Assembly (NCBI GenBank): GCA_001761425.1
Contig: CP012986.1
Span: 510,001 to 542,000 of the forward strand
Direction: 5' to 3'
DNA: 32,000 nt
Origin: Candidatus Saccharimonadota bacterium
Lineage (GTDB): Archaea > Nanohalarchaeota > Nanosalinia > Nanosalinales > Nanosalinaceae
Each line of letters opens with the position of its first letter. Position 1 is the stretch's first letter. The position numbers and the translations under genes are program-made. The notes below the pieces were generated by a model. It had not been told where the DNA came from, searched no databases, and saw nothing but the letters and a program-made list of their open reading frames with translations. Below, piece by piece: positions 1 through 27,393 of this stretch.

Positions 1-297
1 GGTGTAGCAGCTATAGAAGGAGAGGATACTCCTGGTGTAGTTGCTTTCCGGTCAGTGGCTGGAGAGGACTCTTCTGAAATCACTTACCGTGTAGAGTTCA
101 GAAACCTGTGTTCGGAGAGTTCTGGCGAGGTTTCAAAAGTAGATATTGAATCTGATGGGCAGACCAGGGCCTCTGGAAGCACTGAAATCACCTTCACCAA
201 CGATGGGGAAGAGGTCAGTAACACTGTGATTCCAGATGGCGCATGTGAAGGAAGGACCACCCGGACCAGCACCCAGATAGGTATACAGTTAGGTTGA
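1..297 (+). CDS. C-terminal end of a protein whose start lies upstream of the window; first visible gene of the pilus-type operon, function unknown (acidic, Ser/Thr-rich, 2 Cys)
   Basis: Frame 1 is open from base 1 to TGA at 295-297, so the GTG at 55 in the ORF track is probably internal. Only a 4-nt gap to the next gene. Confidence 0.4.
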   Translation, partial: GVAAIEGEDTPGVVAFRSVAGEDSSEITYRVEFRNLCSESSGEVSKVDIESDGQTRASGSTEITFTNDGEEVSNTVIPDGACEGRTTRTSTQIGIQLG

Positions 298-301
298 TAG
301 A

Positions 302-718
302 ATGAGCAAAGGCCAGCACCTGGCTCTGGAATCAGTAGCTACATTTGGCCTTACACTCATAGCAGCAGTAGGAGTTGTCCAGATGTTTGGCCAGGTAAAC
401 GATGGAGTAGTCACCAGCACCGAGGAAACACAGGCAGAGGTTGTCGGCGACGTGGTAAGAAGTACAGTGATTCAAATGGAATCAAGTTCAGAACAGGAAA
501 GAGGATACCATCAACTGGAGCTTCCCGAAAAAATAGGGGGAAAAGACTATACTGTGGCACTCAAGCAGGGAAAAGTACTGGTCTTCACAGATAATAACGA
601 ATTCAGCCAGAACTTCAACCTAGGATCTACAGATAAAGTTCAGGAAGGTTCGGCGCAGGGAGGAAGCGTCCGCATATTCAAAAACAGCGAAGGATACACT
701 TTGAGGTCAGGAAGATGA
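302..718 (+). CDS. Type IV pilin-like protein with class III signal peptide (candidate major pilin, 138 aa)
   Basis: N-terminus MSKGQ/HLALESVATFGLTLIAAVGVV: short basic leader, K-G-Q putative prepilin-peptidase site, then about 20 hydrophobic residues. AGGT 7 nt upstream of the ATG. Stop overlaps the ATPase start (ATGA). Confidence 0.65.
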   Translation: MSKGQHLALESVATFGLTLIAAVGVVQMFGQVNDGVVTSTEETQAEVVGDVVRSTVIQMESSSEQERGYHQLELPEKIGGKDYTVALKQGKVLVFTDNNEFSQNFNLGSTDKVQEGSAQGGSVRIFKNSEGYTLRSGR

Positions 719-2418
719 ACCCGGGAATGCAGAACTTAATAAAACGTCTACAAAGGCTAAAGCATCCAGAAAGATTCGAACAAAGGGAAGATGAGAGAGA
801 AGATAGCCCAGGAGTAAGTGTACCTATTCCAGGAGATTTCGATCCAGAAACAGTAGAACAGGAAAGTGAGGAGGAACAAAGTGAAGGCCTTGAGGATACA
901 GATATAACATATCCTTTGACTCCGACTGATCCTGCGGAAGGAGAAACGGTCTATGCATGGGCTCATATCACCTGGGACGAACAGGGAGAGGAACTTGTAT
1001 ACAGGGTTATAGAGCCTCAGAGAACGCCTAGGACAGATCAGATCCTTGATAAGATCAAAAATATTCTTGAGAGCAGTTTTGACGTTGATTTCAATGAACT
1101 TGCTACTGATGAGGCCCATGAATATCTTGAGGATAAAATTGATCATATTATAGACAAGTATGATATCTCTCTAAACGGTAAGGAACAGCAGATAATCCGA
1201 TACTATGCAAAGAGAGACTTTGTAGGCCTTGGCAAGCTTCAGCCGTTGATGAATGACACAGAGGTTGAGGATATTTCGTGTGACGGCCTTGATATACCTG
1301 TCTATGTTGATCACAGGAATCCGAAGTTTGGTTCGATCAAGACTTCGGTGATGTGGACGGAGGCCGAGGAGCTTAACAGTTTCGTGATGAAGATGGCTCA
1401 GAGATGCGGTAAATCAGTTTCTGTGGCCAATCCTTTGCTTGATGGTTCTCTTCCGGATGGATCACGTGTACAGGCGACACTTGCGACAGATATTGCCAGG
1501 AAGGGTTCGAACTTCACTATCAGAAGGTTTACAGAGGATCCTTTGACACCAGTCCATATGATGGATTTCGAGACAGAGAACGCCCAGTTACTCAGTTATC
1601 TCTGGTTTATGATTGAGCATGAGAAATCTACCTTGATCGCAGGTACTACGGGAGCAGGTAAGACTTCACAGCTCAACGCTTTGTCTCTGTTCATCAAGCC
1701 GGAGAAAAAGATCGTCTCAATTGAGGATACGCCGGAGCTCAGGCTTCCACATGATCACTGGGTGCCGGAAGTCGCAAGAAGTGGTTTCGGATCAAGTGCT
1801 GAAGAAGGCGGAGAAGTATCTCTTGATAACCTGTTGAAGGAGTCTCTGCGTCAGAGGCCTGAGTTTATCATTGTTGGTGAGGTCAGAGGTGAGGAGGCCT
1901 ATATCCTGTTCCAGCAGATGGCCACAGGGCATACAGGTATGTCGACGATCCACGCTGATTCTCTTGGCATGCTTATGGATCGTTTGACAACTAACCCGAT
2001 TGATCTTTCGCCGAGTCTTATCGAGACTCTGGATGTTGTGATGCTTATCTCGAGGATCCGCCGTGGAGATACGTATATCAGGAGGATCAAAGGGATATAT
2101 GAGATCCGGGATTATGATGAGAAGAGAGGCCTTCAGGCGAATAAGGTGTTTGGCTGGGATCCTGAGGAGGATGAGTACTACCAGGAGAATAATTCTCTTA
2201 TCCTGGATGATATCAAAGCTGAGAGTACAATGGATGAGGATGATATCCAGAAAGAGCTTGCGAACCGCCAGCTGGTCCTTAATTACATGCAGGATCAGCA
2301 GATTAAGAATTTCCAGGATGTTGGCGACGTGATTTCCCGGTATTACTATAATCCGGATCAGGTTCTCGGGGATATTGACCAAACATTTAATTCGGAAGAG
2401 AAGAATATCGATACATAG
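715..2418 (+). CDS. Type IV pilus/archaellum-family assembly ATPase (FlaI/PilB/EpdL/TadA-like, GspE-VirB11 superfamily)
   Basis: Walker A GTTGAGKTS, Walker B region EFIIVGEVRGEEA, His box TGHTGMSTIHA, N-domain YRVIEPQ motif typical of archaeal FlaI/PilB. Acidic N-terminal extension. GAGGT SD-like element 7 nt upstream. Confidence 0.9.
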   Translation: MNPGMQNLIKRLQRLKHPERFEQREDEREDSPGVSVPIPGDFDPETVEQESEEEQSEGLEDTDITYPLTPTDPAEGETVYAWAHITWDEQGEELVYRVIEPQRTPRTDQILDKIKNILESSFDVDFNELATDEAHEYLEDKIDHIIDKYDISLNGKEQQIIRYYAKRDFVGLGKLQPLMNDTEVEDISCDGLDIPVYVDHRNPKFGSIKTSVMWTEAEELNSFVMKMAQRCGKSVSVANPLLDGSLPDGSRVQATLATDIARKGSNFTIRRFTEDPLTPVHMMDFETENAQLLSYLWFMIEHEKSTLIAGTTGAGKTSQLNALSLFIKPEKKIVSIEDTPELRLPHDHWVPEVARSGFGSSAEEGGEVSLDNLLKESLRQRPEFIIVGEVRGEEAYILFQQMATGHTGMSTIHADSLGMLMDRLTTNPIDLSPSLIETLDVVMLISRIRRGDTYIRRIKGIYEIRDYDEKRGLQANKVFGWDPEEDEYYQENNSLILDDIKAESTMDEDDIQKELANRQLVLNYMQDQQIKNFQDVGDVISRYYYNPDQVLGDIDQTFNSEEKNIDT

Positions 2419-2421
2419 AAG

Positions 2422-3291
2422 ATGAAAAAATATGCTGACTTCTGCTATGATCAGGTAGGGTCCTACGCTCTCCAGATGCTGGACAGCTTTGAAGGCCTCA
2501 GACCACAGCTTACAAAGGCAGGTATACAGGTCTCCCTGCCTGAATACGTCAGCATGATGCTTTTCTCGTCTATAATCTCTGGTCTGGTCGGCACAGTGTT
2601 TTTGAGCGTCATCTTCATCCTGGAATCAGGAATTCCAGGCCTTATAATGGGTATCAGCTTCGGTGCTATGATTGGCGGAGGAACTTTCATAGGTTTCTAC
2701 CTGCTTCCATCCATCAAGATAAACAATAGAGGGGCGAAGATCGAAGATACTCTTCCATTCGCAGTTATGTATCTTTCAACGCTTGCAGGAACAGGTACAT
2801 CAGTAACAGAGATGTTTCGAAACCTTGCAGAGTCAGATGAGTACGATGAACTGGCGAGCGAAGCTGAGAAAATACATAGAGATATTGAATCCTTTGGAAT
2901 GGATATAGGAGAGGCCTTGACAAAGGGAGCAGAGCGTTCTCCAAGCGATGACCTTGAGGAAGTTCTCTGGGGTATGAACCATGTTATAACTACAGGAGGA
3001 TCTCTTAGAGAATTTCTGGATCAGAGAGCTACTTCTTTAATGGAGGATTACGAGAGAAGGATCGATGAGTTCTCTGAAAAGCTTTCACTGCTCGTTGAGA
3101 TGTATATTATACTTGTTATTGTCGGCTCAATTATCTTCACTTCTATGTCGGTCGTTGTAAGTGCTTTTGGAGGTATTGATCCAAGCCTGGTTATACTGAT
3201 TCAGGCCTTATCTGTGTTTGTTGGCTTACCCTTCATATCTGTAGGATTCATAATCCTGGTTGACGGCATCTCGCCGGGAGGTATTGACTGA
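2422..3291 (+). CDS. TadC/PilC/FlaJ-family polytopic membrane protein, first of two single-domain halves (EpdJ/K-like)
   Basis: TM segments flank one T2SSF-like helical cytoplasmic domain (LPFAVMYLSTLAGTGTS ... GGSLREFLDQRA). Lies immediately after the ATPase gene (3-nt gap). Confidence 0.75.
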   Translation: MKKYADFCYDQVGSYALQMLDSFEGLRPQLTKAGIQVSLPEYVSMMLFSSIISGLVGTVFLSVIFILESGIPGLIMGISFGAMIGGGTFIGFYLLPSIKINNRGAKIEDTLPFAVMYLSTLAGTGTSVTEMFRNLAESDEYDELASEAEKIHRDIESFGMDIGEALTKGAERSPSDDLEEVLWGMNHVITTGGSLREFLDQRATSLMEDYERRIDEFSEKLSLLVEMYIILVIVGSIIFTSMSVVVSAFGGIDPSLVILIQALSVFVGLPFISVGFIILVDGISPGGID

Positions 3292-4304
3292 TGGATCTGT
3301 TTGAGAATGATGGACCGGATAATGAATCAAAGAGAGATCAGATAATTAAATACTCCGCAGCGGCTGGAGCAAGCCTTGTGATGATAGGTATCTTGCTTTA
3401 TGTCGTAATTGGGCCTCAGGCAGGAGGTGCACTCATTATCCTGGGTGTTATCTCTTCTGTTGTACCTTATGGTGGTCTTTCTTTCCTGGAAAACCGCAGG
3501 ATTAAGGAGATGGAGGATCAGTTCCCGGCTTTCCTTAATGGTCTTGCTGAGTCGAAGAGAGGAGGTATGACACTTCTGGATGCATTTGAATCTGCTCACA
3601 ATACTGACTATGGCCGTTTGAACGATGAAATCGAACAGGTTTACAATGAGTTGAGCTGGGGTATACCGTTCCCTGAAGTGATGGAGAGATTCAGCCAGAG
3701 AGTCTCGGATTCTGCCGTGATGCAGAACTCTATATCTATCATTATCCAGAGTTTCAGAAGCGGAGGGAATATTACACATACTGTTGATGCTGTAGCAGAT
3801 GAAGCTGCCACCCTCAGGAATGTTGTGAAGCAGAAAAACTCTCAGCTTAAACAGCAGATGATGATAATGTATGTCATCTACCTGCTGTTCATAGGTATCA
3901 CTCTAGGCCTCTACATGATGCTTGACCAGCTTATGGGATTCGGTACTCAAGGAGGAGGAGCATTCTCCAACATAGGCGAACTTACAGGTTCAAGCCAGAA
4001 TATCAACTACTGTACTGGAAGCATACCGGCAGCACAGCCTTTTTGCCAGATCTCACAGGTATTTGGATTTATTCCGGAAGGCGTTGCACTGGGATCTGAA
4101 GAGGCCATAACTAACAGCTACGGTAAGATGGCATACTACAAATCCCTGCTGTTCACCATGCTCATGATTCAGGGAGTATCTACCTCAGCAGTAGCCGGCA
4201 AAATTACCTCAGGAAAAGCTGCTGCCGGGATCAAACACGCAATGATTATGATCCCGCTGGCCTTCATCGCCTTCATGACAATAGTCGCCCCAATAGGTGT
4301 ATAA
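3291..4304 (+). CDS. TadC/PilC/FlaJ-family polytopic membrane protein, second half
   Basis: One T2SSF-like domain (FPAFLNGLAESKRGGMTLLDAFE ... FRSGGNITHTVD) plus TM segments. GGGAGGT SD 8 nt upstream. Start overlaps the preceding stop (TGATG). Confidence 0.75.
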   Translation: MDLFENDGPDNESKRDQIIKYSAAAGASLVMIGILLYVVIGPQAGGALIILGVISSVVPYGGLSFLENRRIKEMEDQFPAFLNGLAESKRGGMTLLDAFESAHNTDYGRLNDEIEQVYNELSWGIPFPEVMERFSQRVSDSAVMQNSISIIIQSFRSGGNITHTVDAVADEAATLRNVVKQKNSQLKQQMMIMYVIYLLFIGITLGLYMMLDQLMGFGTQGGGAFSNIGELTGSSQNINYCTGSIPAAQPFCQISQVFGFIPEGVALGSEEAITNSYGKMAYYKSLLFTMLMIQGVSTSAVAGKITSGKAAAGIKHAMIMIPLAFIAFMTIVAPIGV

Positions 4305-4309
4305 ACCCA

Positions 4310-5143
4310 TTGAAAGGACAGGTAACAATAGAATTCCTTGCATCATTCTTCCTCTACATACTGGCAGTGGTAGCAGTATTCCAGTTCGTATCCAGCGGAA
4401 TCCCTGACTTCAACAACTCGATGAACCAGAAAACACTGCACTACGAAGCCAAATATGTATCAGACCAGATGCTGAAACAGCCAGGATACCACACAGAAGG
4501 CCTCGGAGGAACAAACTGGGAGAAAAACAGTTCAACCAGGAACTCCCTTAACAGCCTGGGCCTCGCATCAGAATACATGAAGATCGACCCGGATAAACTC
4601 GAACAGCTATCGACTGTAGGACAGTCCAAGGTAAATTACTCACAGTTCATAGATACTGTAGGAGTAGATAACCAGTACTATTTCAATTTCACGTGGACTC
4701 CGGTCGTGAAAACATACCAGAGCTTCTACAAGAGAGATCCGCCTACAGGCCTTACTGTCCCTGACCATGACTTGTACCAGAGGGCTAGAGGCAGGGTCCA
4801 TTACGGTAATGTAACTCTTAACGGAGAGACCAGGCATTTTCTTGTTACAGAACACAGAACCGGATACAACACCACCTATGTATCAGGAAACAGGGATTTC
4901 CAGAACTCGGATCCCAGAGGCCTTGATTCTACCGTCAGTTTCGGCGGGCAGATTTTCAAAGTATCAGGTTTTCAGAACATAAGATATCATAGAGGAGGCC
5001 TTGTTTTCCTGGAAAGTCATGTGAAAGGTTTTGGAAGTAGTCTTGACCGTTCAGAAGAAGTGGTCAAGTTCAACCGTTATCCTTCTTATGACGCCGATAA
5101 CTCAGATCTTATGCCTATGAGAGTGGAGGTGTATGTCACTTGA
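4310..5143 (+). CDS. Pilin-like protein with class III signal peptide, 277 aa, sequon-rich
   Basis: TTG start giving MKGQ/VTIEFLASFFLYILAVVAVF, with Glu at +5 after the putative G/Q cleavage. AGGTG 10 nt upstream. Six N-x-S/T sequons (NNS, NSS, NYS, NFT, NVT, NTT). Confidence 0.6.
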   Translation: MKGQVTIEFLASFFLYILAVVAVFQFVSSGIPDFNNSMNQKTLHYEAKYVSDQMLKQPGYHTEGLGGTNWEKNSSTRNSLNSLGLASEYMKIDPDKLEQLSTVGQSKVNYSQFIDTVGVDNQYYFNFTWTPVVKTYQSFYKRDPPTGLTVPDHDLYQRARGRVHYGNVTLNGETRHFLVTEHRTGYNTTYVSGNRDFQNSDPRGLDSTVSFGGQIFKVSGFQNIRYHRGGLVFLESHVKGFGSSLDRSEEVVKFNRYPSYDADNSDLMPMRVEVYVT

Positions 5144-6909
5144 GGAAGGGACAGATGCATGTTATCGATGCTGTGGCAGCGGTAATGATCCTCTTTTTCT
5201 TCGCTATCAGCGGATTCAACATGTCAGATGCCAGGGACTGGACCCGGTTCGAGAACCAGATAACTACAGGAGATCTCAGTTACACCATGAAAGAAACAGG
5301 TCACATAGATGAGTTTGTATCGAAAGGAAGCACAGGGAGCCTGAAACAGGCCTTTAACGGGATTACCCAGAGAGATTTCAGTACATCAGGAGATATCAGA
5401 GGGACAGCACCGAACCTGGATATAGGGTTTTTCAGAAGGCCTTCTCAGATAAGTGATGCTCCCGTCAGTAATGTTTCATCCGGCGATAGTTGCGATGATG
5501 AGGTGCAGAACCAGTTGCAGAGCCGTTCTGCTACACCTGTGCTTAAGACTGAGGCCTCGTCTATCAAAAGTAATAATGGAGATATCACATTCTATCTGGG
5601 AGATTATCATATTAACGAGGATCTGGTATCTCAGGTCAAGTATGATTCAGTGTGGATTGACCAGGGAGGCTGTGATTTTGGCCGTTTATCTGACCCCTAC
5701 AGTCTTGGAGAAATATTTGAATGGGGAGATGGAAACTACTACGAGTTCAGAGATGTTGATGTGAGTGTCGATACCTGGACAGGGACAGTGGAGCTTGCGG
5801 AGGCAGACCAGATGAAAAGAATGCAGGAGACTATGCAAAGTCCTATGAACGGCATCAAAAACCGCGTTAAGATCGACTCATTCACGTTCAACGACGATAC
5901 TGAAGGCCTTGACTTCTTCATATTTGCGGAGAAAGAAACTCTTCAACATATAGAAGATGAAGACCAGAGAAACACTGTCAACAGAATGATAGAAGATAAT
6001 CCAGTCCTGTTCATGGCTAACCTGAACCAGTCCCTGGTACAGAACACTGTACTCCGGGAAAACGGGTTCCAGTGGAAAAACCTTGGCTACAGAACAGATG
6101 AGGGCTGTGGAGCTTCCGATCAGGAGGTTAATGACTCCTGTGGAACGCTTGAAGTAGGTTTTTCCTCCCATCAGGACTCAAAGAAGACAAAAGAGATGAT
6201 GTCGGGTATGAAAACATACTTCTCCAGTATCTCCCTTTACCCTGAAGGCAGTGTAGTCACTGAGGATAAAGGTGCATTATCATTTGACAAGACCATGTAC
6301 CTTGAAAACTTCGCCTACTCCGGAATCAGTGAGGACAGGGTTAACACAGGCCTTACAGAGGATACATCTGTCACAGGAAGGCCTGATACCCATTGTAATA
6401 ATATCACTTCAGGTACATTGGATTTCCCGGATTCAGATGGGAATCTGGAAACTCTTGAGATAGTTAATACCCAGTTAGGTAAATCCGACTCTTACTGCAG
6501 CCAGAACAACAGAGCTCTTTACATAGACAGGGATGATGACGGAGATTTCTCCGAGTCCGATGAAGGGCCTTTCCAGGAAGGTGAGAAAACGGATATCAGA
6601 GGCCTTACATACGTGACAAGGATATATGACTCTACCGCTTCCGGCTGTGGGCCTGATGACTGTGCTGGGTTTGTACTTGATGAGAATGCCCAGCTGAACG
6701 TTTTCACATATGAGAGCGGCGGTGATGTCGGCAGGACGCCTTATGAAGATTCTTTCAGTTCCGAAGACAGGAAGGCTATCGCAGGTTTCATCTATATGAT
6801 GGCAGGGCCGACGCAGTTAGAGGGAAGGACCAGCGGTGAGATCTCGACCAGTATCTACGGTTCAACAGGCGAAGAGCCTTACAGGATCAATATGAGGTGG
6901 CAGAACTGA
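5140..6909 (+). CDS. Large (589 aa) acidic, Cys-rich pilin-like/pilus-associated protein with class III signal peptide
   Basis: TTG start overlapping the upstream stop (TTGA), with GGAGGTG SD at 5125-5131, 8 nt upstream. N-terminus MRKGQ/MHVIDAVAAVMILFFFAI. At least 10 Cys, mostly in close pairs. DRDDDGDFSESDEG Ca-binding-like stretch. Confidence 0.55.
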   Translation: MRKGQMHVIDAVAAVMILFFFAISGFNMSDARDWTRFENQITTGDLSYTMKETGHIDEFVSKGSTGSLKQAFNGITQRDFSTSGDIRGTAPNLDIGFFRRPSQISDAPVSNVSSGDSCDDEVQNQLQSRSATPVLKTEASSIKSNNGDITFYLGDYHINEDLVSQVKYDSVWIDQGGCDFGRLSDPYSLGEIFEWGDGNYYEFRDVDVSVDTWTGTVELAEADQMKRMQETMQSPMNGIKNRVKIDSFTFNDDTEGLDFFIFAEKETLQHIEDEDQRNTVNRMIEDNPVLFMANLNQSLVQNTVLRENGFQWKNLGYRTDEGCGASDQEVNDSCGTLEVGFSSHQDSKKTKEMMSGMKTYFSSISLYPEGSVVTEDKGALSFDKTMYLENFAYSGISEDRVNTGLTEDTSVTGRPDTHCNNITSGTLDFPDSDGNLETLEIVNTQLGKSDSYCSQNNRALYIDRDDDGDFSESDEGPFQEGEKTDIRGLTYVTRIYDSTASGCGPDDCAGFVLDENAQLNVFTYESGGDVGRTPYEDSFSSEDRKAIAGFIYMMAGPTQLEGRTSGEISTSIYGSTGEEPYRINMRWQN

Positions 6910-7838
6910 AAGGACAGTTCATGATTATATCTGCAGTCCTTGTAAGCATCCTGCTGATGTCAACAGCCACTACAATGTCTGAAATCAGGGAAAGCGACTT
7001 CTCACCGATCGAGAAAGATTATCACGTCAACAGCATAGAACAGGTTGGAGAGAAACTTGATCTAGCGAAGAAAAGCGATCGGAAAGAATTCAGACAAACA
7101 GTAGACTACATATCCTCATACACAACAGACCTGACATTCTGGGAGGAAAGAAGATGTTACAACCTAACCCTGTCCAACACGGAAACAGAGACAAGGATAA
7201 CGTGTGCGGGAAACGGATCGGTCTTCCACGACTCATTCGAGGACGGAGAACACACAGACCCGCTCTGGATAAAAAGAGGACAGGACGGAAACATGCAGGT
7301 CATCACAGAATACTCGCCAAAAAACGGACAGAAGGCCCTGAAACTTCAGGAAAACGGACAGAACAGCACAAGCTTCAAGGCCCAGCTCCAGCAAAACTTC
7401 GACATCTGGGAACAGGCCTGGACAGCACAAGGCCTCTACAGGACAAACTCTATAGACAAGACAACAGCTCAGAGACATGAAATCATACTCAATGACAACC
7501 AGAACCATAACGACCAGATCCATGTACAGCTCGGTGTAGCTGACCACGGAGGAAATAATATCAGATTCAGGATCAAGAATGAAGGCCTGATAGACAATCC
7601 TGACAGTACAAACGTTAACTGGCAGGAAAACACCTGGTATGGCTGGAAGATAATACATGATGGCTCAGGAAATTATGATGGAAAAATATGGGAATACAGA
7701 AATGGAGAGCCACAGAACTCCGATATAACTGCCTCAGGAGACACATCTACAAACCCGGGAGCAGTATCCTACAGAATGAACGGTACGGCCGGAAGCAGTT
7801 TCCAGATAGCCCATGACTACCTCAAACTCGATAACTGA
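6897..7838 (+). CDS. Pilin-like protein with class III signal peptide and C-terminal beta-sandwich lectin-like (ConA/LamG-like) domain
   Basis: GTG start gives MAELKGQ/FMIISAVLVSILLM, keeping the K-G-Q motif shared by the other three; the ATG at 6921 would lose it. The C-terminal ~200 aa starts FHDSFEDG...W and contains NTWYGWKIIHDGSGNYDGKIWEY. Five sequons. Confidence 0.55.
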   Translation: MAELKGQFMIISAVLVSILLMSTATTMSEIRESDFSPIEKDYHVNSIEQVGEKLDLAKKSDRKEFRQTVDYISSYTTDLTFWEERRCYNLTLSNTETETRITCAGNGSVFHDSFEDGEHTDPLWIKRGQDGNMQVITEYSPKNGQKALKLQENGQNSTSFKAQLQQNFDIWEQAWTAQGLYRTNSIDKTTAQRHEIILNDNQNHNDQIHVQLGVADHGGNNIRFRIKNEGLIDNPDSTNVNWQENTWYGWKIIHDGSGNYDGKIWEYRNGEPQNSDITASGDTSTNPGAVSYRMNGTAGSSFQIAHDYLKLDN

Positions 7839-7918
7839 ACACCAAGTTTAGATGACAGAGAACAAGCCTTTTACAGCTAGTTCTGAAAGTCTCTGTCAAA
7901 GTTACTCCTCTAAAGGCC

Positions 7919-9106
7919 TTAAAACTTCTTCAGAAACTCTTTTTCTTTGTCTTCTAGTTCGAGAGAATCGGCGATTTCAGGCCTTTCTCTGAAAAGATTT
8001 GCGTAGAGCGGAAGATCGTTCTTTACATCTTTCTTCGACATGTGGAGTTTCTCGCCCATCTTGGATGAGATGCTGTCCAGCTTCTGGCGTGAAGCTCTTG
8101 ACTGTCCCATCTGCCTGATCTTCGAAGGGTACTGGTACTTGGTCCAGCCTTTGTATTTCTCCTCTTTCGCCAGGGCTACTCCGATAGTGGAGAAGTCATA
8201 GACATATTTGAGAAGTTTCCAGTTCATCCGTCTTCTTATTCTCCCATTGAACAGGTCGGCTTTAGAGATCCAGTCGTACGCATGTGAGAGATCTTCAGGC
8301 CTCTTGTACTCGCGTGGGATGTTTTCCCTTATCCACTGGACCATGGTGTCCGCGTCTTCGTCTAGGTTCTCCGTCGCCTGGCTGGCATTGGAGAGGTTCT
8401 TCGTCTTGAAAATAATCTTTAGTGAATCAAAGATCTCCTGACGGTTATCCCGCTGACCGATAACATCCATATCATCTTTTGTGATCTGTTCTTTTCCGCG
8501 GGCGATAGCCTCTAAATCGTTTATCGCTGAACGCATCTGTCCCCCGGCCTGACGCGCTATCCTCTTTGGAACGCCGTCCTCGTAGTCAACGCTTTCTTCA
8601 TCAAGTATATCACGCAGAAAAGCTGCGATAGAGTTAGTATGTACCGAACCAAGCTCTATGCTTTTCGATTTATTCCTTAAGGAGCGGATACTGTTATCAT
8701 AAGCGTCGTTCGCAGTCATAACGATAGGGAAACGGGTCTCATCGACGATAGTACCGATCTCCTTGACCCCTCCTCTATCGCTGTTACCGGACATGCCATC
8801 CACTTCGTCTATAAGTATGAGTTTCCTGCCTCCGTAAAACGAGGCCTGACGCGTCGCCTCCTTCAACTCCTCCTTGAGCTTTGACTTTGTCCGGACATCA
8901 GAAGCATTTGTCTCAACCAGCTCGTAGCCAAGATCATTAGCCAGGGCCTGAACCAGTGAAGTCTTACCTGTACCGGCCTGACCATGGAGAAGAACAGCTT
9001 TATCTCCCTGCTCCCAGTTTTCAACATGTTTCTTCAAATCCTTTTTCTCGCTGGAAGCACCACGGTACTCCGACAAACTCTCAGGCCTGTACTTCTCAGT
9101 CCACAT
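7919..9106 (-). CDS. rfcL: Replication factor C large subunit
   Basis: MWTEKYRPESL N-terminus, Walker A GQAGTGKTS, Walker B LILIDEVD, archaeal RFC-L architecture. Lies 15 nt downstream of rfcS. Confidence 0.9.
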   Translation of the reverse strand: MWTEKYRPESLSEYRGASSEKKDLKKHVENWEQGDKAVLLHGQAGTGKTSLVQALANDLGYELVETNASDVRTKSKLKEELKEATRQASFYGGRKLILIDEVDGMSGNSDRGGVKEIGTIVDETRFPIVMTANDAYDNSIRSLRNKSKSIELGSVHTNSIAAFLRDILDEESVDYEDGVPKRIARQAGGQMRSAINDLEAIARGKEQITKDDMDVIGQRDNRQEIFDSLKIIFKTKNLSNASQATENLDEDADTMVQWIRENIPREYKRPEDLSHAYDWISKADLFNGRIRRRMNWKLLKYVYDFSTIGVALAKEEKYKGWTKYQYPSKIRQMGQSRASRQKLDSISSKMGEKLHMSKKDVKNDLPLYANLFRERPEIADSLELEDKEKEFLKKF

Positions 9107-9121: not shown

Positions 9122-10072
9122 CTATTGTTCCTCAAGATTTGAGATCTGTGCTAGGAGGGCCTCGATCTGAATATCTGAAGAGCCCCCTTCGCTAATCCTG
9201 AACTCGAACTCTCCAAGCTTCTCCATAATCTCAAGCTTTCCCTCATCAGAGATATCAAGTTCAAAGATTTCCCTATGGATCGAACTGATCACATCCTGTC
9301 CGTCAAGGCCTCTATCAATCATTAAATCGGCAAGTTCTTCTCTTGCCTCGATGAAATCCCCTTTCAGAGATTTTTCAAGTATTTCATTTATCTCCTCAGG
9401 CCTTAGACTTGCTGCAACGCCGTAAATGTCTTCTTCCCCGATCTCGTCGTTGTTGATCGAAGCAGTCTGAAGTATATTCGTCACCCTTCTGAGATCTCCT
9501 TCTGAGACCCGCATAACCGCATCGATCGCGTCCTTTGAAATCTTGAAATCTTCTTCTTTGCCCAGTCTTGTAATGTAATCTTTAACGTCGCCTTCTTCCA
9601 ACCTGTTGAACCTGAATACTGCGCATCGGCTCTGTATCGGGTCGATAATTTTTGATGAGTAGTTACATGAGAGTATGAAACGGCAGTTATCCGAGAACTG
9701 CTCCATAGTCCTTCTCAAGGCCTGCTGTGCGTCGCTTGTAAGTGCGTCGGCCTCGTCAAGGAAGATAATCTTGTAATCTGCGTTCATTGACTTTGTGCGG
9801 GCAAAATCCTTGATTTTCTCTCTGACAACGTCTATCCCTCTCTCATCGGAGGCGTTCGTCTCCATAAAGTTTTGTCTCCAATCATCTCCGTACAGATCCT
9901 TGGCAAGAGCCACTGCAGAAGTCGTCTTTCCCGTCCCAGCAGGGCCTGCGAACATCATATGCGGGATCGAATCCTCGTTTACAAAGGCCTGAAGCCTCTC
10001 TGTTATTTTATCCTGGCCCACAACCTCGGAAAGCGTGTCAGGCCTGTGCTTCTCAGTCCAAACATCAATCAT
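9122..10072 (-). CDS. rfcS: Replication factor C small subunit
   Basis: WTEKHRPDTLSEVVGQ, Walker A GPAGTGKTT, IIFLDEADALT, SRC motif (QSRCAVFRF). No intein. GAGGTGG SD 7 nt upstream. Confidence 0.95.
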   Translation of the reverse strand: MIDVWTEKHRPDTLSEVVGQDKITERLQAFVNEDSIPHMMFAGPAGTGKTTSAVALAKDLYGDDWRQNFMETNASDERGIDVVREKIKDFARTKSMNADYKIIFLDEADALTSDAQQALRRTMEQFSDNCRFILSCNYSSKIIDPIQSRCAVFRFNRLEEGDVKDYITRLGKEEDFKISKDAIDAVMRVSEGDLRRVTNILQTASINNDEIGEEDIYGVAASLRPEEINEILEKSLKGDFIEAREELADLMIDRGLDGQDVISSIHREIFELDISDEGKLEIMEKLGEFEFRISEGGSSDIQIEALLAQISNLEEQ

Positions 10073-13078: not shown

Positions 13079-13978
13079 ATGGATCTGGAGCAGGACTATC
13101 TTATATATGCAATAGAAGCCTCGCTGGCCTTTCTGGCAGTAACTTCAACCTACCTGATAGACATTACAAGGCCTCTCACACTTCTGGCTCTGATCCCGGC
13201 CACGATACTCTTCGGCTACACCTCCTACATCTCCAGAGAACGTTTCAGGCCTCAGGCAGCAATATCGATGCTTGCACTTGTACTTGTACCTGTTGGAGGG
13301 ACGGTAGCAGCGGGAGCAGTATCGATAACTCTCATAAACGTCCTGACATCTGTTTTCGCCAGCGGAAGCTCTTTCAAAGACTACTACGGATCAACATCGC
13401 TTCCGTTACTGTTTACAGGCCTTATACTGGGATCTCTTCTTTTTGCTGGAGCTATGTCAAATCCGGCAGTTGCCAATACGATCCAACAGGATTCGGCGGA
13501 CTTTATCGGACAGCAGACAGAAGAAATAGTGAACAGGAGCAACATGCTGGAATCAAGGAAAGGAGAGCGAGCAAAGCTTTTTAACAGAACGTCAGATACC
13601 GCTTTCAGAGTGGTGAAAAACTCTGTAATCAGCGAAATGGGTAGAAAAAGTAGTTTAAACACGGAGCAGTACAGTGATCTGGAAAGATCATTTGACAACG
13701 CTGAAAAAGCACTGAACAGAACCTTGAAGGAACAGGCCTCCAAAAACATCGATCAGAGAAGCATAGATATATCTTCAAGGGTTTCAGATCTCATATCTAA
13801 CACGATAAAAGGAAAGGCATTCCTTCTGGTGGTTCCAGCAGTTACCTTCGGTATCTACAGTGTTCACCCGGTAGTAGGAATATTTGCAGCTATCTGGGCT
13901 TCAATGTTCGCTGCGGTAAATGTTCGGATTTCGATTCAGACTGATTCAAAAGAATTGGACTCTCCCTCAACAATATGA
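13079..13978 (+). CDS. Hypothetical membrane protein: about 4 N-terminal TM, ~100-aa polar helical middle, about 2 C-terminal TM
   Basis: Hydrophobic segments at both ends. The middle region (NRSNMLESRKGERAKLFNRT...KEQASKN) is polar and helical. Stop overlaps the lhr start (ATGA). Confidence 0.5.
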   Translation: MDLEQDYLIYAIEASLAFLAVTSTYLIDITRPLTLLALIPATILFGYTSYISRERFRPQAAISMLALVLVPVGGTVAAGAVSITLINVLTSVFASGSSFKDYYGSTSLPLLFTGLILGSLLFAGAMSNPAVANTIQQDSADFIGQQTEEIVNRSNMLESRKGERAKLFNRTSDTAFRVVKNSVISEMGRKSSLNTEQYSDLERSFDNAEKALNRTLKEQASKNIDQRSIDISSRVSDLISNTIKGKAFLLVVPAVTFGIYSVHPVVGIFAAIWASMFAAVNVRISIQTDSKELDSPSTI

Positions 13979-16708: not shown

Positions 16709-18388
16709 ATGCTGGAGCCAGTGATCCAACAACTCAGTAATTTCTTCCTGAATCCTCTAGGTCTCGCAGCACTTCTAGGCCTTGTACCACTTGTGATTTT
16801 CTACCTGGTAAGGCCTTCACCTGAGGAAAAAGTCATGCCTTCCATGAAGTTCTTCCAGAAAGATAAAAAGAGCGGAAGACTCCAGAAAGCTTTGAAAGTC
16901 CTTCAGCGAAACATGATGCTTCTTCTACATGTACTTATGGTAGCAGGACTTGCAGCAGGGATTGCAAACCCGTACATCATGGGTGAACAGAGACCTGAAA
17001 ATGCTGTAATCGTTATAGATAACTCTGCAAGCATGAAACCGGTTTTTGACCAGGTTAAACAGGAAGCGACCTCTCAGGCAGGACGAAGTAACACTGTAAT
17101 AGTTGCGAACGATGAGACAGAGATCGCGTTAGAGAAAGCATCACTTTCCGAAACTCAAAGATTTATTAGAGGCCTTGAAGTCGAAGAAACCGGGACAAAC
17201 ATCGTAAGAGCTGTGCAGAGAGCTGGGAACTACGAAGGGAAAGTCTTTCTGGCCACAGACTTTCAGCAGACAGCGGAGACAGATACTGATATCAAAGATC
17301 TAGTGAAAACAGTTTCTACTTCAAGGCCTCTTCAGACTTTTGACCCGACCAAAAGCAATGAATGGGGTATTGTAGATCTCGAGATCGATGGGGAAAATGC
17401 TACAGCGTTCATACAGAATTTCAGGGATCAGAGGGCAAGTATCAATGTTGAAGTTGGAGATGGCTCACGCAGTCTGGATCTGAAAGCTGGAGAACTGAGA
17501 AGACTATCCTTTACGCTTCAAAAAGGTAAAAATACTTTATCCCTAGAAGAAGACGGTTTTGAAATCGATAACACAGCACGTATTTACAGGCCTTCAGATG
17601 ATGATACCAGAGTAGCTGTCGTTGATAATGAAAAAAACAGATATCTGATGAAGGCCTTAGATCTTGTAGAAAATGTAGATCCTGTCTATGTGAGGCCTTC
17701 AGAGTCTCTTCCCCGGTCTGATGTCTATATACTGGGAAGAATGGACTCTCTACAGGAAGTAGATACACAGAAGATGGTCTCAGAACTTAAACAGGGTAAA
17801 GGCCTTGTACTTTATGCTCAGAGCGGTGCAGAGGATATATCCTCAGAATTACCTGTCAGCTCTACTGGAGAGGCCTTTAATTCTTCCGTAGAGGTCTCAG
17901 AGCCTGTCGAAATCGAGACAGGTAATATCAGTTTACTGGAATCGGCAGTTGATGGAGAATCAGTTTCAACTCCGAAGGAGGCTCTACAGTTTGCCGATGT
18001 AGGTGACGGAGAGTTTGTTTACTTCAACTTTGGGTCTCAGGAGTTCAGGGAGAGCCTGGACTACCCGGTATTCTGGAAACAAGTTGTAGAGAGAGCAGCT
18101 GGAAGGCCTTCAGCACAGGATCTGAATCTGGAAACAGGTTCCACAGTACTGGCGGAGGAAAAGACTATTGAGATAACGGAAACAGGGTTCCAGGAACTTG
18201 ATGGAAAGATGTACGCTTCAAATCTTCTGAACGGTGAAGAATCAAGGTTTGAAAGCTTTGAGATAGAGCATAGCTCAGCTGAGGCGGTTAAACAGCCTCA
18301 GAGCTTTCAGGCCTTACCTGTGCTACTGATAATTGTTCTTGGACTGTTTGAGATGGCTTATCTCTACAGGAGAGGTGAGATACCTTGA
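16709..18388 (+). CDS. BatA_N-type double-TM plus von Willebrand factor A domain membrane protein
   Basis: N-terminus FFLNPLGLAALLGLVPLVIFYLVRP...MPSMKFF (aerotolerance BatA N-terminal pattern). MIDAS VIVIDNSAS ... TGT ... LATD. C-terminal TM LPVLLIIVLGLFEMAYLY. Confidence 0.65.
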   Translation: MLEPVIQQLSNFFLNPLGLAALLGLVPLVIFYLVRPSPEEKVMPSMKFFQKDKKSGRLQKALKVLQRNMMLLLHVLMVAGLAAGIANPYIMGEQRPENAVIVIDNSASMKPVFDQVKQEATSQAGRSNTVIVANDETEIALEKASLSETQRFIRGLEVEETGTNIVRAVQRAGNYEGKVFLATDFQQTAETDTDIKDLVKTVSTSRPLQTFDPTKSNEWGIVDLEIDGENATAFIQNFRDQRASINVEVGDGSRSLDLKAGELRRLSFTLQKGKNTLSLEEDGFEIDNTARIYRPSDDDTRVAVVDNEKNRYLMKALDLVENVDPVYVRPSESLPRSDVYILGRMDSLQEVDTQKMVSELKQGKGLVLYAQSGAEDISSELPVSSTGEAFNSSVEVSEPVEIETGNISLLESAVDGESVSTPKEALQFADVGDGEFVYFNFGSQEFRESLDYPVFWKQVVERAAGRPSAQDLNLETGSTVLAEEKTIEITETGFQELDGKMYASNLLNGEESRFESFEIEHSSAEAVKQPQSFQALPVLLIIVLGLFEMAYLYRRGEIP

Positions 18389-20718
18389 AAGAGGTGTTTT
18401 ACTTCCAGGAGCCTGTGGCGCTTCTGGCAGGTCTGGTAGCTTTCTCAGGAGTTTATATTTTCCTGAAGGCCTCTGGAAGAGAGGGCAGGATCGTCGGTTT
18501 CACAAGGACTCTGTTTTTCCTGTTACTGGCTATCTCTCTGGCAGGGCCTTTTCTTCAGGATTCAAGGATGGTCGAGGATCAGCAGGATCTTTTCGTACTG
18601 GAGGATAGCTCCCGATCCTCTGAGCTGCTGGAAAACACTTCTCTGGATGCAGAAAACGTGGATATCCGGCGTAAAACTGTACTTACCGGTAATAACTCCA
18701 AGTTGGCTTCTGCTCTCAAATCGGAGCTAAGGCCTGATTCCACCTATCTGTTGATGAGCGATGGCAGGAGTTCTGAGGATCTCGAAAACGTTCTCAGGAA
18801 ATACAGAGATGAGAACTCGACGATTTCAGTCCTTAAACCGGAGATGGAAACAGAAAGATCTGTACATGTCTCAGGGCCTTCCACCACTGTTCCTGGAGCT
18901 GCTACAAAGTTCACAGTGGACATAGATTCTACAGAACAGGATGAGGTCCCGGTGAAAGTTACTCTGGATAATAAAACTGTTCTGGACAGTTCTGTAAGTG
19001 GTTCATGGAGTTTTAACAGGTCCTTCAGCTCTGAAGGGGTTCACAGGATCAGTGCAGAGATAGAGAGCGACGACAGGTTCTCAGGAAACAACAGGTACTA
19101 CAAGACTGTCAAAGTTGAGGAGAAACCGGAGATACTCTACATCGGAGCTGAATCCGAACTCAGCGATAAACTCTCACAGTTCTACAGAGTCACAGTCCTT
19201 CAAGAAATCCCCGATGATCTCTCCGACTACTATACTACTGTATCAACCAGAAAACTCGATGAAGAAAGAATACAGGATTATATAACGAAGGGAAACGGCT
19301 ATCTCTACCTTGGAGATTACAGCGAACCCGCGAGACATTTACCGCTGAAGGCCTCGAACGAGAACTATAACGATGAAAGCACCAGGATGGTCATGCCGAT
19401 ACAGGTGCCTTTCAAATCCACTAACGTTACGTACACCAAAAATACTGCGGGAAGTATCGTGAAGGCCTTGCCGGGAAACACCAAGTTTGGAGGCATCTAC
19501 TATTCGACGACAGCGGACTACCTGACGACGGGAGGTACTGCCCTGTTCCCCCGGCAGGTAAGTCGGACTAACAAGATGGTGACGCTGGGCGGAGGCTCAG
19601 GCAACAGGGAACAGACTATTCAAAACATAAGACAGCTTGACAGGTCCACCTACAAGAGACATGACGTGGCGCTGAAGGCCTCACAGGATCTTCTGGGCGA
19701 CGAAGGCAACATCATACTTGTGACCAACGGAGATATAGTTGATACTACTACTGTCCCCAATCATGAGGGAAAGACTGCGGAGGAGATCAGGGCAGCAGCC
19801 CTGGACCAGGCTAGAGGCCTTGACTCGGATATCGATCTTTACGCGGTCAGGACAGGGCCTCTACCTGAAGAAGCAGAGGATATTGAGGACATTGACAGAA
19901 GTGAAGTGATCGAGAACAGGGATTTCATGCAGAGCCTGGCAGACGCAGCACCGAGTGCCAGGAGCAACTACTACAACATAGATGAACTTAACCAGCTCTC
20001 AAGACTCGAACTGGGAGCAGGAGGAGGGACCTCAGCCTTCAAACCGATCGGCGTTATAGACGAAGACCACTTTATCACCGAAGGAGTCAGACTCAGGACG
20101 GAAATCTCAGAGTTCAACGAGGTAAGGCCTAAACCTTCTTCCGATGTCCTCGTCTCAGGACCACAGAAGAGAGAGTTCCTCACAGCCTGGAACTACGGTC
20201 TAGGAAGAGTAGCAGCATTCTCCGGAGACCAAGGAGCGCTGGAAAGAACACTTGACGCTGATCCAGGCCTTGTCTCCCGAACAGCAAGCTGGACGATAGG
20301 AAATACTGACAGAAAAGAGGAAAGATGGCTGAAAATCTCTGAAACTGAAGCACCGACAGAAGCAGAGGTCACAGCATCCTATCAGGTACAGGGCCTTACA
20401 TACAGATCTGAAAACCGGTACACGGGAAGCATCAAACCTGAGAGCAAAGGATTTCACAGCTTTGCCGGAGAAAACTACAGCTACAACTACAACTCTGAAA
20501 TAAGAGAAATAGGGTACAGAGACGAGGCCTTGAGAAAGATAGCATCGGAGACAGGTGGAGAGGTCTATACTACTTCCGAGCTTGAAAGCACAGAGTTCGG
20601 AGGCTCACAGATGAAGGAGGTTAGTTACAGCAGGCCTCTATCCGGTTACTTCCTTGTCGCTGCGATGTTTGTCTTGCTTTCGGAGATCGGTTACAGAAAG
20701 TTAAACGGGAAGAAATAA
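18385..20718 (+). CDS. BatA_N-like membrane-anchored surface protein with vWA-like, CARDB/Ig-like and GATase1-like regions
   Basis: TTG start overlapping the upstream stop (TTGA), with GAGGTGA SD at 18372-18378, 6 nt upstream. LEDSSRS MIDAS-like motif. CARDB-like stretch TKFTVDID...VHRISAEIESDDRFSGNNRYYKTVKV. WNYGLGRVAAFSGD motif. C-terminal TM. Confidence 0.6.
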   Translation: MKEVFYFQEPVALLAGLVAFSGVYIFLKASGREGRIVGFTRTLFFLLLAISLAGPFLQDSRMVEDQQDLFVLEDSSRSSELLENTSLDAENVDIRRKTVLTGNNSKLASALKSELRPDSTYLLMSDGRSSEDLENVLRKYRDENSTISVLKPEMETERSVHVSGPSTTVPGAATKFTVDIDSTEQDEVPVKVTLDNKTVLDSSVSGSWSFNRSFSSEGVHRISAEIESDDRFSGNNRYYKTVKVEEKPEILYIGAESELSDKLSQFYRVTVLQEIPDDLSDYYTTVSTRKLDEERIQDYITKGNGYLYLGDYSEPARHLPLKASNENYNDESTRMVMPIQVPFKSTNVTYTKNTAGSIVKALPGNTKFGGIYYSTTADYLTTGGTALFPRQVSRTNKMVTLGGGSGNREQTIQNIRQLDRSTYKRHDVALKASQDLLGDEGNIILVTNGDIVDTTTVPNHEGKTAEEIRAAALDQARGLDSDIDLYAVRTGPLPEEAEDIEDIDRSEVIENRDFMQSLADAAPSARSNYYNIDELNQLSRLELGAGGGTSAFKPIGVIDEDHFITEGVRLRTEISEFNEVRPKPSSDVLVSGPQKREFLTAWNYGLGRVAAFSGDQGALERTLDADPGLVSRTASWTIGNTDRKEERWLKISETEAPTEAEVTASYQVQGLTYRSENRYTGSIKPESKGFHSFAGENYSYNYNSEIREIGYRDEALRKIASETGGEVYTTSELESTEFGGSQMKEVSYSRPLSGYFLVAAMFVLLSEIGYRKLNGKK

Positions 20719-20744: not shown

Positions 20745-20766
20745 CAGGCCTTCTAATCTTTTGGTT

Positions 20767-21510
20767 ATGGGAGCTTTCGATAAAATAAAGGATTCTATAC
20801 CCGGTACCGGTTCTTCTGACAGTTCCTCCTCGGATTTCGATGGAGGGGACTTCGACAGTTCATTTGATGACGGAGGCGGAGGCCTTGACATGGATGATTC
20901 TGGAGGTTCTGTCAACACAGGTGGAGGAGGGGGACCGTCGCTCGGAGGTTCTCAAGGCCCTCAAAGCAATCCAGGCTCTCAGGGAGGTCCTGGAGTTTCT
21001 TCGGGATCGAATGATTCTCTTCCAGGGAAGCCCACAGAAGGACAATCCCAGGGAAACGGTCCTGGCTCAGCCCCTGCCGGAAATGGCAATAGTTTAGGAG
21101 GAAACTCTCCCGGTCAAGGCGGAAATCCGCCGGGTCAAGGGGCTTCAGGTAATTCTGGAGGTCTCGGCGGCGGTTCTGGAGGCCCTTCTGGTGGTCCTGG
21201 TCTTTCAGATAATCAGAATCCTTCTCAGGGTGATGCAGGTCCTCAGGCTTCTCGGGGAAGCCCTAATCCTCAGTCTGGGAGGCCTTCTGGTAGCGGTCAG
21301 CCTCAGTTGAGTTCCTCTACGAAGGAGAAGATGAGGAAGGCTGGTATGAATCCTGACTCTCCTCCTGGGGGATCGGGTCCTTCCGGCGGTGGAAGGCCTG
21401 GTTCTGGAGGTAGGCAGAGTGTTGCTGCTTCACGTGATGATATGGAGGAGTTGAAATCTCAGAATGAAAAGATTATAGAGCTTCTGAAGCGTCTGAATCA
21501 GAAGATGTAG
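20767..21510 (+). CDS. Low-complexity Gly/Ser/Pro/Asn/Gln-rich, probably disordered protein with short structured termini
   Basis: ATG at 20767 (MGAFDKIKDSIPG) lies about 26 nt downstream of a TTTATTTA TATA-like box. About 200 aa of G/S/P/N/Q repeats. C-terminal helix DMEELKSQNEKIIELLKRLNQKM. Confidence 0.5.
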   Translation: MGAFDKIKDSIPGTGSSDSSSSDFDGGDFDSSFDDGGGGLDMDDSGGSVNTGGGGGPSLGGSQGPQSNPGSQGGPGVSSGSNDSLPGKPTEGQSQGNGPGSAPAGNGNSLGGNSPGQGGNPPGQGASGNSGGLGGGSGGPSGGPGLSDNQNPSQGDAGPQASRGSPNPQSGRPSGSGQPQLSSSTKEKMRKAGMNPDSPPGGSGPSGGGRPGSGGRQSVAASRDDMEELKSQNEKIIELLKRLNQKM

Positions 21511-26730: not shown

Positions 26731-27393
26731 ATGTTTTCCATGATAGCGGCGGAGGCCTTGATCCAGCTTATTCAGCAGTACGGTGTTCTCGCTGTTATCT
26801 TCGGCGTTGTTATCGAGGAGATTGTTGTTCCGATTCCTTCGCCGGTCGTGCCGATGGCAGCTGGTTTTATCGTTGTTCAGGCTACTTCTCTGCCTCAGGC
26901 CTTGCTTGAGATAATTTTTCTGGTTGTTATCCCGGCTTCACTGGCTTCTGTGGTCAGTTCGTATTTTGTCTACGGTATAGCTTATTTCGGCGGTAAACCT
27001 GTGCTTGAGAGGTATGGTTACTACCTGGATGTTTCCTGGGAGGAGGCTAGGGAGCTGGAGGAGAAATTTGCTTCGGGGAAACAGCATTACTACGTCGCAC
27101 TTTTCAGGGCTATTCCCGTAGTGCCGCTTTCACTTGTCTCAGGATCAGCAGGCCTTTTCAGGATGGACTGGAAAAAGTACGGTCTCTGGACACTCATCGG
27201 TATGGTCCCAAGGACTTTCTTCCTCGCCCTCGCAGGATGGTACCTGAAAGACGGCTTCGTAACTGTCGCTTCTTATATCGATAACCTCTCAACTCTCATA
27301 CTACTGGCGACAGGAGGCCTTGTAGGAGCTTATCTTTTCTACAGAAAATATGGAAATATCTACAGGAAACTGCTTTTCTCGGACCGGATCTAA
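26731..27393 (+). CDS. DedA/VTT-domain family membrane protein
   Basis: GVVIEEIVVPIPSPVVPMAAGF and FRAIPVVPLSLVSGSAG motifs. The true start may be the second ATG at 26740, which is 25 nt from a TTAAAAATA box. Confidence 0.8.
   Translation: MFSMIAAEALIQLIQQYGVLAVIFGVVIEEIVVPIPSPVVPMAAGFIVVQATSLPQALLEIIFLVVIPASLASVVSSYFVYGIAYFGGKPVLERYGYYLDVSWEEARELEEKFASGKQHYYVALFRAIPVVPLSLVSGSAGLFRMDWKKYGLWTLIGMVPRTFFLALAGWYLKDGFVTVASYIDNLSTLILLATGGLVGAYLFYRKYGNIYRKLLFSDRI

Follow-up and report, generated by a model that had tools for sequence, protein, structure and literature searches.

How DPANN archaea recognise a host and hold on to it is an open question, and a 32-kb stretch of archaeal DNA (contig CP012986.1, positions 510,001 to 542,000; ~46% GC; hereafter the window), whose source is described as a tiny halophilic symbiont, raises it in a concrete form. 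The window opens with an operon for a type IV pilus-like machine, in which an assembly ATPase (T2SSE) and two platform proteins (T2SSF) are flanked by genes for proteins with a K-G-Q signal, and the last gene of this operon, an open reading frame (ORF) at 6897-7838, encodes a 313-amino-acid (313-aa) protein with a pilin-like N-terminal half and a lectin-like C-terminal half. What is such a protein for? We think it probable, though by no means assured, that it belongs to a nanohaloarchaeal type IV pilus-like machine as a modular minor pilin and that it displays a module binding a ligand of the host, in which case residues 110-313 would be a concrete, small and soluble candidate for host recognition. 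An earlier note on this DNA had described the protein as pilin-like, with a C-terminal lectin-like domain, and as a candidate tip adhesin.

Two exchangeable modules in one protein

The way the protein is put together carries most of the argument. An exhaustive profile search of 1.84 billion representatives led to 160 relatives, and when the 167 retrieved proteins were sorted by separate profiles for the N- and C-terminal modules (counts here and below are of cluster representatives), both modules were found together in 21, which are orthologs of the 313-aa pilin, while 63 proteins had the N module without this C module and others had the C module without the N module. Since the stand-alone N modules end just past C103 and the free C modules start at an F-x-D-x-F-E-D-G motif, the domain start that the earlier note had placed at F110 (nt 7224) is recovered independently from both sides. 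The module in front of the domain is ~100 aa long (residues 7-105). The strings FHDSFEDGEHTDPLW, NTWYGWKIIHDGSGNYDGKIWEYRNGEP and FQIAHDYLKLDN are all found in the ORF. The architecture is that of a modular pilin in the sense of Raynaud et al. (2021): an N module that occurs alone (47 of the 63, all of <=115 aa), a C module that occurs without it (81 proteins) and a linker of four residues between the two, residues 107-124 having a predicted local distance difference test score (pLDDT) below 50 in the AlphaFold2 (AF2) model of the full-length protein.

The other 16 proteins with the N module carry a different cargo, namely Laminin_G_3 in nine (some with FG-GAP repeats or PKD), ILEI in two, PKD with or without Gly_rich_2 in three and no recognised domain in two. 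Where Pfam has a name for the cargo, it is mostly a domain for binding or adhesion and never a recognised enzyme domain; Gly_rich_2 is without an assigned function, and two cargos have no match in Pfam. In five variants examined in their contigs, the exchange can be followed at a single position, the pilin slot directly before the genes for replication factor C (RFC), which in related loci (labelled L001 and so on) is occupied by a protein of 105 aa (L006), 283 aa with ILEI (L004), 465 aa with Laminin_G_3 (L008 and L009), 719 aa with PKD and Gly_rich_2 (L007) or 948 aa with FG-GAP and Laminin_G_3 (L005). When the window proteins were used in tblastn, all operon genes proved orthologous in the cargo-variant loci, including the N module (23-54% identity), whereas the C module was matched in Nanohalobium-type loci only. 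Thus, the two halves of the 313-aa protein are independent, exchangeable modules, and the type of cargo at a fixed slot provides a handle for comparison with host range.

This exchange bears directly on the possibility that the C module makes no contact with a host and serves as an internal assembly factor, binding a pilus component such as the 589-aa KGQ protein encoded upstream or a major pilin, in the manner of GspK-like priming or capping. Translational coupling of the gene to the two preceding KGQ genes, its conserved position at the end of the operon and the purifying selection on both modules would all suit such a role. However, a domain that binds a partner should stay fixed and co-evolve with that partner, whereas here unrelated modules take its place, or it is missing altogether, in loci whose partner genes are still orthologous, and the same domain occurs in 81 clusters of non-pilin secreted proteins. 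It is the exchange of cargo at a fixed slot that speaks most strongly against a purely internal structural role, which we regard as distinctly improbable.

A more appealing scenario, and the one we prefer, is that the pilin module is a carrier whose slot is left without cargo or filled with a different binding cargo in related genomes. A prepilin peptidase encoded elsewhere would cut the short leader after its Gly, and the hydrophobic N-terminal helix would place the ~100-aa pilin module in the filament, probably jointly with the two translationally coupled upstream KGQ proteins, the three forming a distal complex that primes assembly. The concanavalin A (ConA)-like beta-sandwich, held by its short linker, would then be displayed outside the cell and could bind a ligand on the envelope of the haloarchaeal host, most likely a glycan or glycoprotein. 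Type IV filaments assemble tip-first, and because cargo of up to ~850 aa is too big for the body of a filament, a position at the tip is suggested. Leader processing, incorporation into the filament, the tip position and the nature of the ligand are steps that we infer.

Leader, pilin module and operon

That the gene is real follows from 18 full-length homologues (E 1e-78 to 1e-177; one is named Candidatus Nanohalobium), from conserved synteny and from purifying selection. A scan of a species-representative genome collection by full-length alignment gave two matches only, both metagenome-assembled genomes of Ca. Nanohalobium. Against the three closest relatives, pairwise ratios of nonsynonymous to synonymous substitution (dN/dS; Nei-Gojobori method, NG86) lay at 0.05-0.08 in residues 9-105 (N module) and at 0.11-0.17 in residues 110-313 (C module). 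These values are rough because dS (0.75-1.9) is near saturation; both modules are under purifying selection overall.

The protein begins with MAELKGQ followed by FMIISAVLVSILLMSTATTMS, that is, with a short basic leader and a hydrophobic stretch of 21 residues without charge. Two start codons come into question: GTG 6897 sits within a Shine-Dalgarno-like GAGGTG motif (motif region 6892-6911), and CTG 6906 is an alternative that corresponds to the start of related loci, which falls 6-7 nt past this motif. The leader is therefore either MAELKG or MKG. A (K/R/S)-G-Q-F leader followed by a hydrophobic stretch is kept at the DNA level in nine nanohaloarchaeal loci, even where gene callers chose an internal Met, and K-G-Q-F is present in 49 of the 63 proteins with the N module only and in 9 of the 21 with both modules, the remainder being calls begun at an internal Met. 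Several public gene calls for the orthologs likewise begin at an internal Met and thereby lose the KGQ leader.

Within the window, a K-G-Q leader and hydrophobic stretch are shared by four proteins (138, 277, 589 and 313 aa) flanking the T2SSE and the two T2SSF genes. The whole of positions 1-7838 is a single co-directional string of genes in which gaps are short or genes overlap; the gene for the 589-aa protein overlaps both its neighbours, by 4 nt (5140/5143) and 13 nt (6897/6909). The KGQ-signal gene cut by the left edge of the window is an ortholog of a 214-aa gene in L014, and the operon therefore extends upstream of the window. With T2SSE and two T2SSF genes in the pilin's own operon, and synteny in 10 loci, the context is that of an archaeal type IV pilin-like protein, and the class III signal and pilin-like N-terminus that the earlier note had recognised are borne out by the conserved leader and this operon.

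It could still be argued that the protein is no pilin but a plain type II membrane protein, anchored by its N-terminus, whose gene lies beside pilus genes by chance. Leader processing is only predicted, the fold of the pilin module is modelled with moderate confidence, and no Pfam pilin model matches the 313-aa protein. Yet K-G-Q-F stands directly before the hydrophobic stretch, is conserved across the family and is common to four other operon proteins, and the position in the operon is strictly conserved, so that we hold a chance neighbour to be very improbable.

Behind the hydrophobic helix, the full-length AF2 model places two helices (38-53 and 59-70) and three strands (76-82, 87-93 and 98-105) at pLDDT 62-77. 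Among 84 cluster representatives, positions 8-28 are free of acidic residues (0%), and C87 (100%) and C103 (96%) are conserved and likely form a disulfide. N-glycosylation sequons are conserved as well. N89-L-T (N89-x-T91) occurs in 18 of 18 orthologs and in ~87-90% of N modules across the larger family; where the two modules meet, N106-G-S is retained by 16 of the 18 orthologs, and N295-G-T is retained by 13 of them. This conservation suggests that the pilin itself is glycosylated.

Ten related contigs (36-49% GC) keep the order ATPase, T2SSF, T2SSF, ~277-aa gene, ~590-aa gene (859 aa in L004), pilin slot and, convergently, RFC, with the T2SSE ATPase 69-85% identical across syntenic loci and the 589-aa protein 24-45% identical in all of them. 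The position of the 277-aa gene is a second slot with exchangeable cargo: its counterparts in three loci are 447-509 aa long and carry Laminin_G_3 (PF13385), and similarity between the 277-aa gene and these counterparts is confined to the N-terminal ~150 aa. In relatives, the upstream end of the locus holds a thermosome gene, a coiled-coil protein and three PilA-type signal proteins, KG|ITPVIATVLLLGITV (KG|ITPVIAT type), which are likely the major pilins. Because relatives encode these PilA-type pilins upstream, the KGQ proteins can be assigned to the minor class.

The locus itself is already published. It is very probably 'Locus 1', which Hamm et al. (2024, PMC11291902) describe as a type IV pilus-like locus in cluster 2 DPANN, and what La Cono et al. 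(2020, PMC7443923) call, in Ca. Nanohalobium constans, an 'archaellum-like operon with seven hypothetical proteins'; with these it shares an ATPase, two TadC/FlaJ-like genes and, in relatives, PilA-type pilins, a coiled-coil protein and the thermosome neighbour. In the available text of the two papers the distal genes are given as hypothetical, and a modular pilin, a ConA-like domain or an exchange of cargo is not described, although LamG- and PKD-containing secreted proteins of nanohaloarchaea had been noted (PMC7443923). Within this limit, what the present analysis adds to the published descriptions is that the last operon gene encodes a modular pilin, that its cargo is exchanged between lineages and that the cargo in the window belongs to an unannotated ConA-like family shared with haloarchaeal-type secreted proteins.

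It is conceivable that the 313-aa protein is a bindosome-like surface protein, carried on a very short pseudopilus without a long filament tip and serving substrate capture or envelope organisation, not host docking; the signal, the ATPase and the platform proteins would then do no more than bring a binding protein to the cell surface. In the Sulfolobus bindosome, sugar-binding proteins with a class III signal depend on the Bas system. The class III-type signal and the operon would be the same in both cases, many family members are bare 100-aa modules, and cargo of the size mentioned above exceeds what a filament body holds. However, the locus of relatives includes genes for three PilA-type major pilins, the cargo types are adhesion modules and not solute-binding-protein folds, and pilus-like filaments have been observed on Ca. 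Nanohalobium (PMC7443923). We therefore consider a bindosome unlikely.

A concanavalin A-like sandwich and its relatives

What, then, would the displayed module bind? Built from 18 sequences, the full-length AF2 model (pLDDT 70.9) is already all-beta past residue 125, and Foldseek relates it to legume lectins, botulinum toxin Hc, calreticulin, ERGIC-53 and a PL7 lyase. Modelled on its own from a 35-sequence alignment, the domain is an all-beta sandwich of 14 strands (pLDDT 93.5, predicted TM-score 0.90), for which Foldseek against the PDB returns legume lectins and calreticulin (E ~1e-7, probability 1.00, TMq 0.5-0.63) and against BFVD returns phage proteins annotated as ConA-like, LamG or tropism determinant (TMq up to 0.69), proteins of haloarchaeal tailed viruses among them. 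The model confidence and these matches make the assignment of the predicted fold solid: the C module is a ConA-like jelly-roll of the superfamily of concanavalin A-like lectins and glucanases at the level of fold.

Sequence comparison takes one no further. Pfam, NCBIfam and PDB sequence searches with the protein and with family alignments gave nothing meaningful (no Pfam match at E <= 1), and when the profile built from 35 domain sequences was compared by hhalign with Laminin_G_3 domains from paralogous pilins, the probability was 1.3%. The ConA/LamG-type label of the earlier note is thus upheld for a ConA-like fold, and 'LamG-type' is valid at that level only, not as a sequence family. Laminin_G_3 (PF13385), legume-lectin and calreticulin domains share the two-sheet jelly-roll with the C module, and Laminin_G_3 fills the equivalent cargo position in paralogous pilins; its sequence-profile relationship to the C module is nevertheless undetectable by hhalign, and identity to legume-lectin and calreticulin domains is about 10-16% in structural alignments. 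Profile matches to RecA entries of the PDB were rejected as spurious: the entries are artificial RecA concatemers, in which a WY..G.G motif is matched again and again at 8 bits and the scores add up. The domain defines a ConA-like sequence family of ~100 clusters at 50% identity that lies outside Pfam and NCBIfam models.

Across 35 diverse domains, the aromatic residues W124, W171, W175, W242, W247, Y248 and W265 and the polar residues D112, E115, D116, H254, D255, N295 and H306 are conserved. It is possible to see in the polar set the traces of a pilus-displayed enzyme, a ConA-like hydrolase or lyase that remodels S-layer glycan or envelope of the host at the contact site, given that the superfamily includes glucanases and PL7 lyases and that lower Foldseek matches include 5zqi (full-length model) and 6yp6 (domain model). 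However, the top 40 PDB matches of the domain model are lectins and calreticulin, and in haloarchaeal-type relatives the domain is accompanied by PA14 and LTD and not by catalytic domains. Moreover, it is the first and last strands (FxDxFEDG, AHDY) that hold the acidic and His residues of the conserved set, an arrangement that recalls the structural Ca2+ sites of jelly-roll binding modules. The earlier note had named two outcomes that would overturn its lectin call, the lack of a beta-sandwich of the lectin/glucanase type and a match to an enzyme family with intact catalytic residues. The predicted fold is of that type, no glycoside-hydrolase or lyase family of Pfam or NCBIfam (GH16 and PL7 types of ConA-fold enzyme included) matches the C module, and a regular-expression search of it for the GH16-type motif E-x-D-x(1,2)-E was negative. 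An enzymatic cargo thus appears improbable.

By analogy, the 313-aa protein is best read as an archaeal counterpart of the bacterial modular minor pilins, of which PilC of Streptococcus sanguinis, with a ConA-like lectin module, glycan binding and a modelled tip complex with two other minor pilins (PMC9934059, PMC8179133), is the closest example. In each of the two proteins a class III signal is followed by a short pilin module, and a short linker leads on to a ConA-like beta-sandwich; the genes of both lie together with those of other minor pilins, both have a cargo module that also occurs outside pilins, and for both display at the tip for adhesion is proposed. PilC differs in being bacterial, in its N-methylation motif (IPR012902), in a pilin part that is not homologous and in an extra immunoglobulin-like module; its lectin domain is recognised by sequence signatures (SSF49899), unlike that of the window, and its glycan binding has been shown experimentally, whereas that of the 313-aa protein is predicted. 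In the Saccharibacteria (Nanosynbacter lyticus TM7x), which are also ultrasmall obligate episymbionts, the minor pilins PilX1 and PilX2 have C-terminal domains resembling L-type lectins (PilX1 is L-type-lectin-like), and recognition of host cell-surface glycans has been proposed for them (PMC11623550), as it is here; these proteins belong, however, to bacteria of the candidate phyla radiation, show no sequence relationship to ours, and an exchange of cargo at a fixed slot is unreported for them. The tip complexes around GspK of the type II secretion system and HIJK of type IV pili are similar in that co-encoded minor (pseudo)pilins, one of them bulky, are proposed to prime assembly at the tip, but GspK has its extra domain as an insertion within the pilin fold, and that domain is no lectin-type sandwich. 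The architecture of modular pilins is known in bacteria, and the present case would extend that principle to archaea.

The haloarchaeal S-layer is heavily glycosylated. Together with the lectin-dominated structural neighbours of the C module and with the carbohydrate-associated modules PA14, ILEI and Laminin_G_3, which lie beside this domain in other proteins or at the equivalent cargo position of pilins, this suggests, by analogy, that the ligand is a glycan.

The 81 proteins that carry the C module without the N module give a hint of where the domain may have come from. None has a KGQ signal, 46 have a twin-arginine-like (Tat) motif and 24 a lipobox; their composition is low in Lys (1.7%) and high in Asp+Glu (16.9%), with a GARP/FYMINK ratio of 1.75 as against 0.69 in nanohaloarchaeal orthologs, and two of their contigs (65-66% GC) encode an archaeal ribosomal protein S19e and DUF7xxx-series Pfam families that we take to be haloarchaeal-type. 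Signal motifs, composition and these two contigs indicate that the C-only proteins probably belong to Halobacteria, the host lineage of nanohaloarchaea. Some of them combine the domain with PA14 or LTD, and a catalytic domain was found in 0 of 10 scanned. In a midpoint-rooted neighbour-joining tree, a weak method, the nanohaloarchaeal domains form one clade nested among haloarchaeal-type domains, as one might expect if the pilin had acquired the domain once. Little was gained from two more word-indexed homologue searches, one starting from the domain alignment and the other from a haloarchaeal-type domain, and plasmids and phages yielded no tblastn match.

A contig of 65% GC (L010, 185-8793) encodes a 1395-aa protein in which the same ConA-like domain is combined with a lamin-tail domain and whose gene adjoins TrbL-, PrgI/TraC- and VirB4-like (AAA_10) genes. 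This context hints that the domain may serve cell-cell contact in haloarchaeal-type organisms too.

It is tempting to go a step further and to propose that the pilin slot is a cassette-type determinant of host specificity, whose module is swapped between lineages, and that the copy in the window was captured from the haloarchaeal host lineage. We put this forward tentatively, as an idea with a rather low chance of being right. If true, the symbiont would dock with a copy of a surface-binding domain of its own host, one that is common in Tat-secreted envelope proteins there.

Several points weigh against a host-binding modular minor pilin and temper our preference for it. Confidence in the model is low for the N-terminal helix and for part of the pilin module (pLDDT ~30 over residues 1-38, 62-77 over residues 45-105), and no prepilin peptidase gene (peptidase A24-type) lies within the 32-kb window. 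An acidic +5 residue is missing, which makes for weak tip evidence; because the presumed major pilins of relatives are without one too, this is uninformative, and the logic of Glu5 in GspK is not cleanly transferable. A fold, moreover, is not a function, since there are ConA-like sandwiches that are protein binders, glucanases or lyases, and a PL7 lyase and a carbohydrate esterase are among the lower Foldseek matches. Finally, the positive selection for which the earlier note had suggested a search was not found gene-wide: pairwise NG86 dN/dS, with dS near saturation, lay at 0.05-0.17. A diversity-generating retroelement acting on the C module was considered and rejected, no template/variable repeat pair touching the gene.

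Features of the window and of related loci

Table 1. Coordinates of the features discussed (window positions unless a related locus is named)
Feature	Position	Strand	Remarks
KGQ-signal pilin-like gene, 3' end	1-297	+	frame-1 translation matches C-terminus of L014 2755-3399 (214-aa ortholog)
138-aa pilin-like protein, MSKGQ leader, DUF7266	302-718	+	Pfam PF23928, E 6e-7, above gathering score
Type IV filament assembly ATPase, T2SSE	715-2418	+	PF00437, E 9e-31; PilB3-like C-terminus, PF23989 (PilB3_C) weak
Platform membrane protein, T2SSF, TadB/PilC-like half	2422-3291	+	PF00482, E 2e-18
Second platform membrane protein, T2SSF	3291-4304	+	PF00482, E 5e-15
277-aa KGQ-signal protein (MKGQVTIEF...)	4310-5143	+	candidate minor pilin; weak DUF7287 match
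589-aa KGQ-signal protein (MRKGQMHVIDAV...)	5140-6909	+	candidate large minor pilin; no family match
Modular pilin ORF (putative)	6897-7838	+	313 aa
Class III-type signal leader	6897-6914	+	MAELKG, or MKG from CTG 6906
Pilin-like N module, residues 7-105	6915-7211	+	21-residue hydrophobic helix, then helices and three strands
Linker N-G-S-V	7212-7223	+	four residues, contains NGS sequon
C module, residues 110-313 and stop	7224-7838	+	predicted ConA-like beta-sandwich, ~204 aa
N-glycosylation sequon N89-L-T	7161-7169
N-glycosylation sequon N106-G-S	7212-7220
N-glycosylation sequon N295-G-T	7779-7787
ORFs without Pfam match	13079-13978, 18385-20718, 20761-21510, 25192-26700, 27390-28256, 28742-29764
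Laminin_G_3 counterparts of the 277-aa gene	L005 5955-7298; L008 5700-7229; L009 304-1833
Extra genes after the pilin, L014	10999-14644		273 aa and 944-aa VWA protein
Extra genes after the pilin, L001	10968-15520		467 and 987 aa

On the 3' side, the pilin gene of the window is directly followed by RFC (7839-7918 between them), whereas in L001 and L014 two extra genes separate RFC from the modular pilin, so that the operon varies at its end as well. The large and small subunits of RFC lie on the opposite strand and are followed by housekeeping genes. The two RFC subunit genes share, at their 5' ends, a 36-nt direct repeat with 81% identity (9068-9103 and 10025-10060), which reflects the paralogous RFC N-termini and is not a mobile or regulatory element. 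For six ORFs of 249-777 aa in the window, Pfam gave no match at thresholds of E 1e-3 to 1e-5. The 777-aa ORF comes after the gene for a BatA/DUF7407/DUF7408 protein (16709-18388), an arrangement that recurs in L004 and L007.

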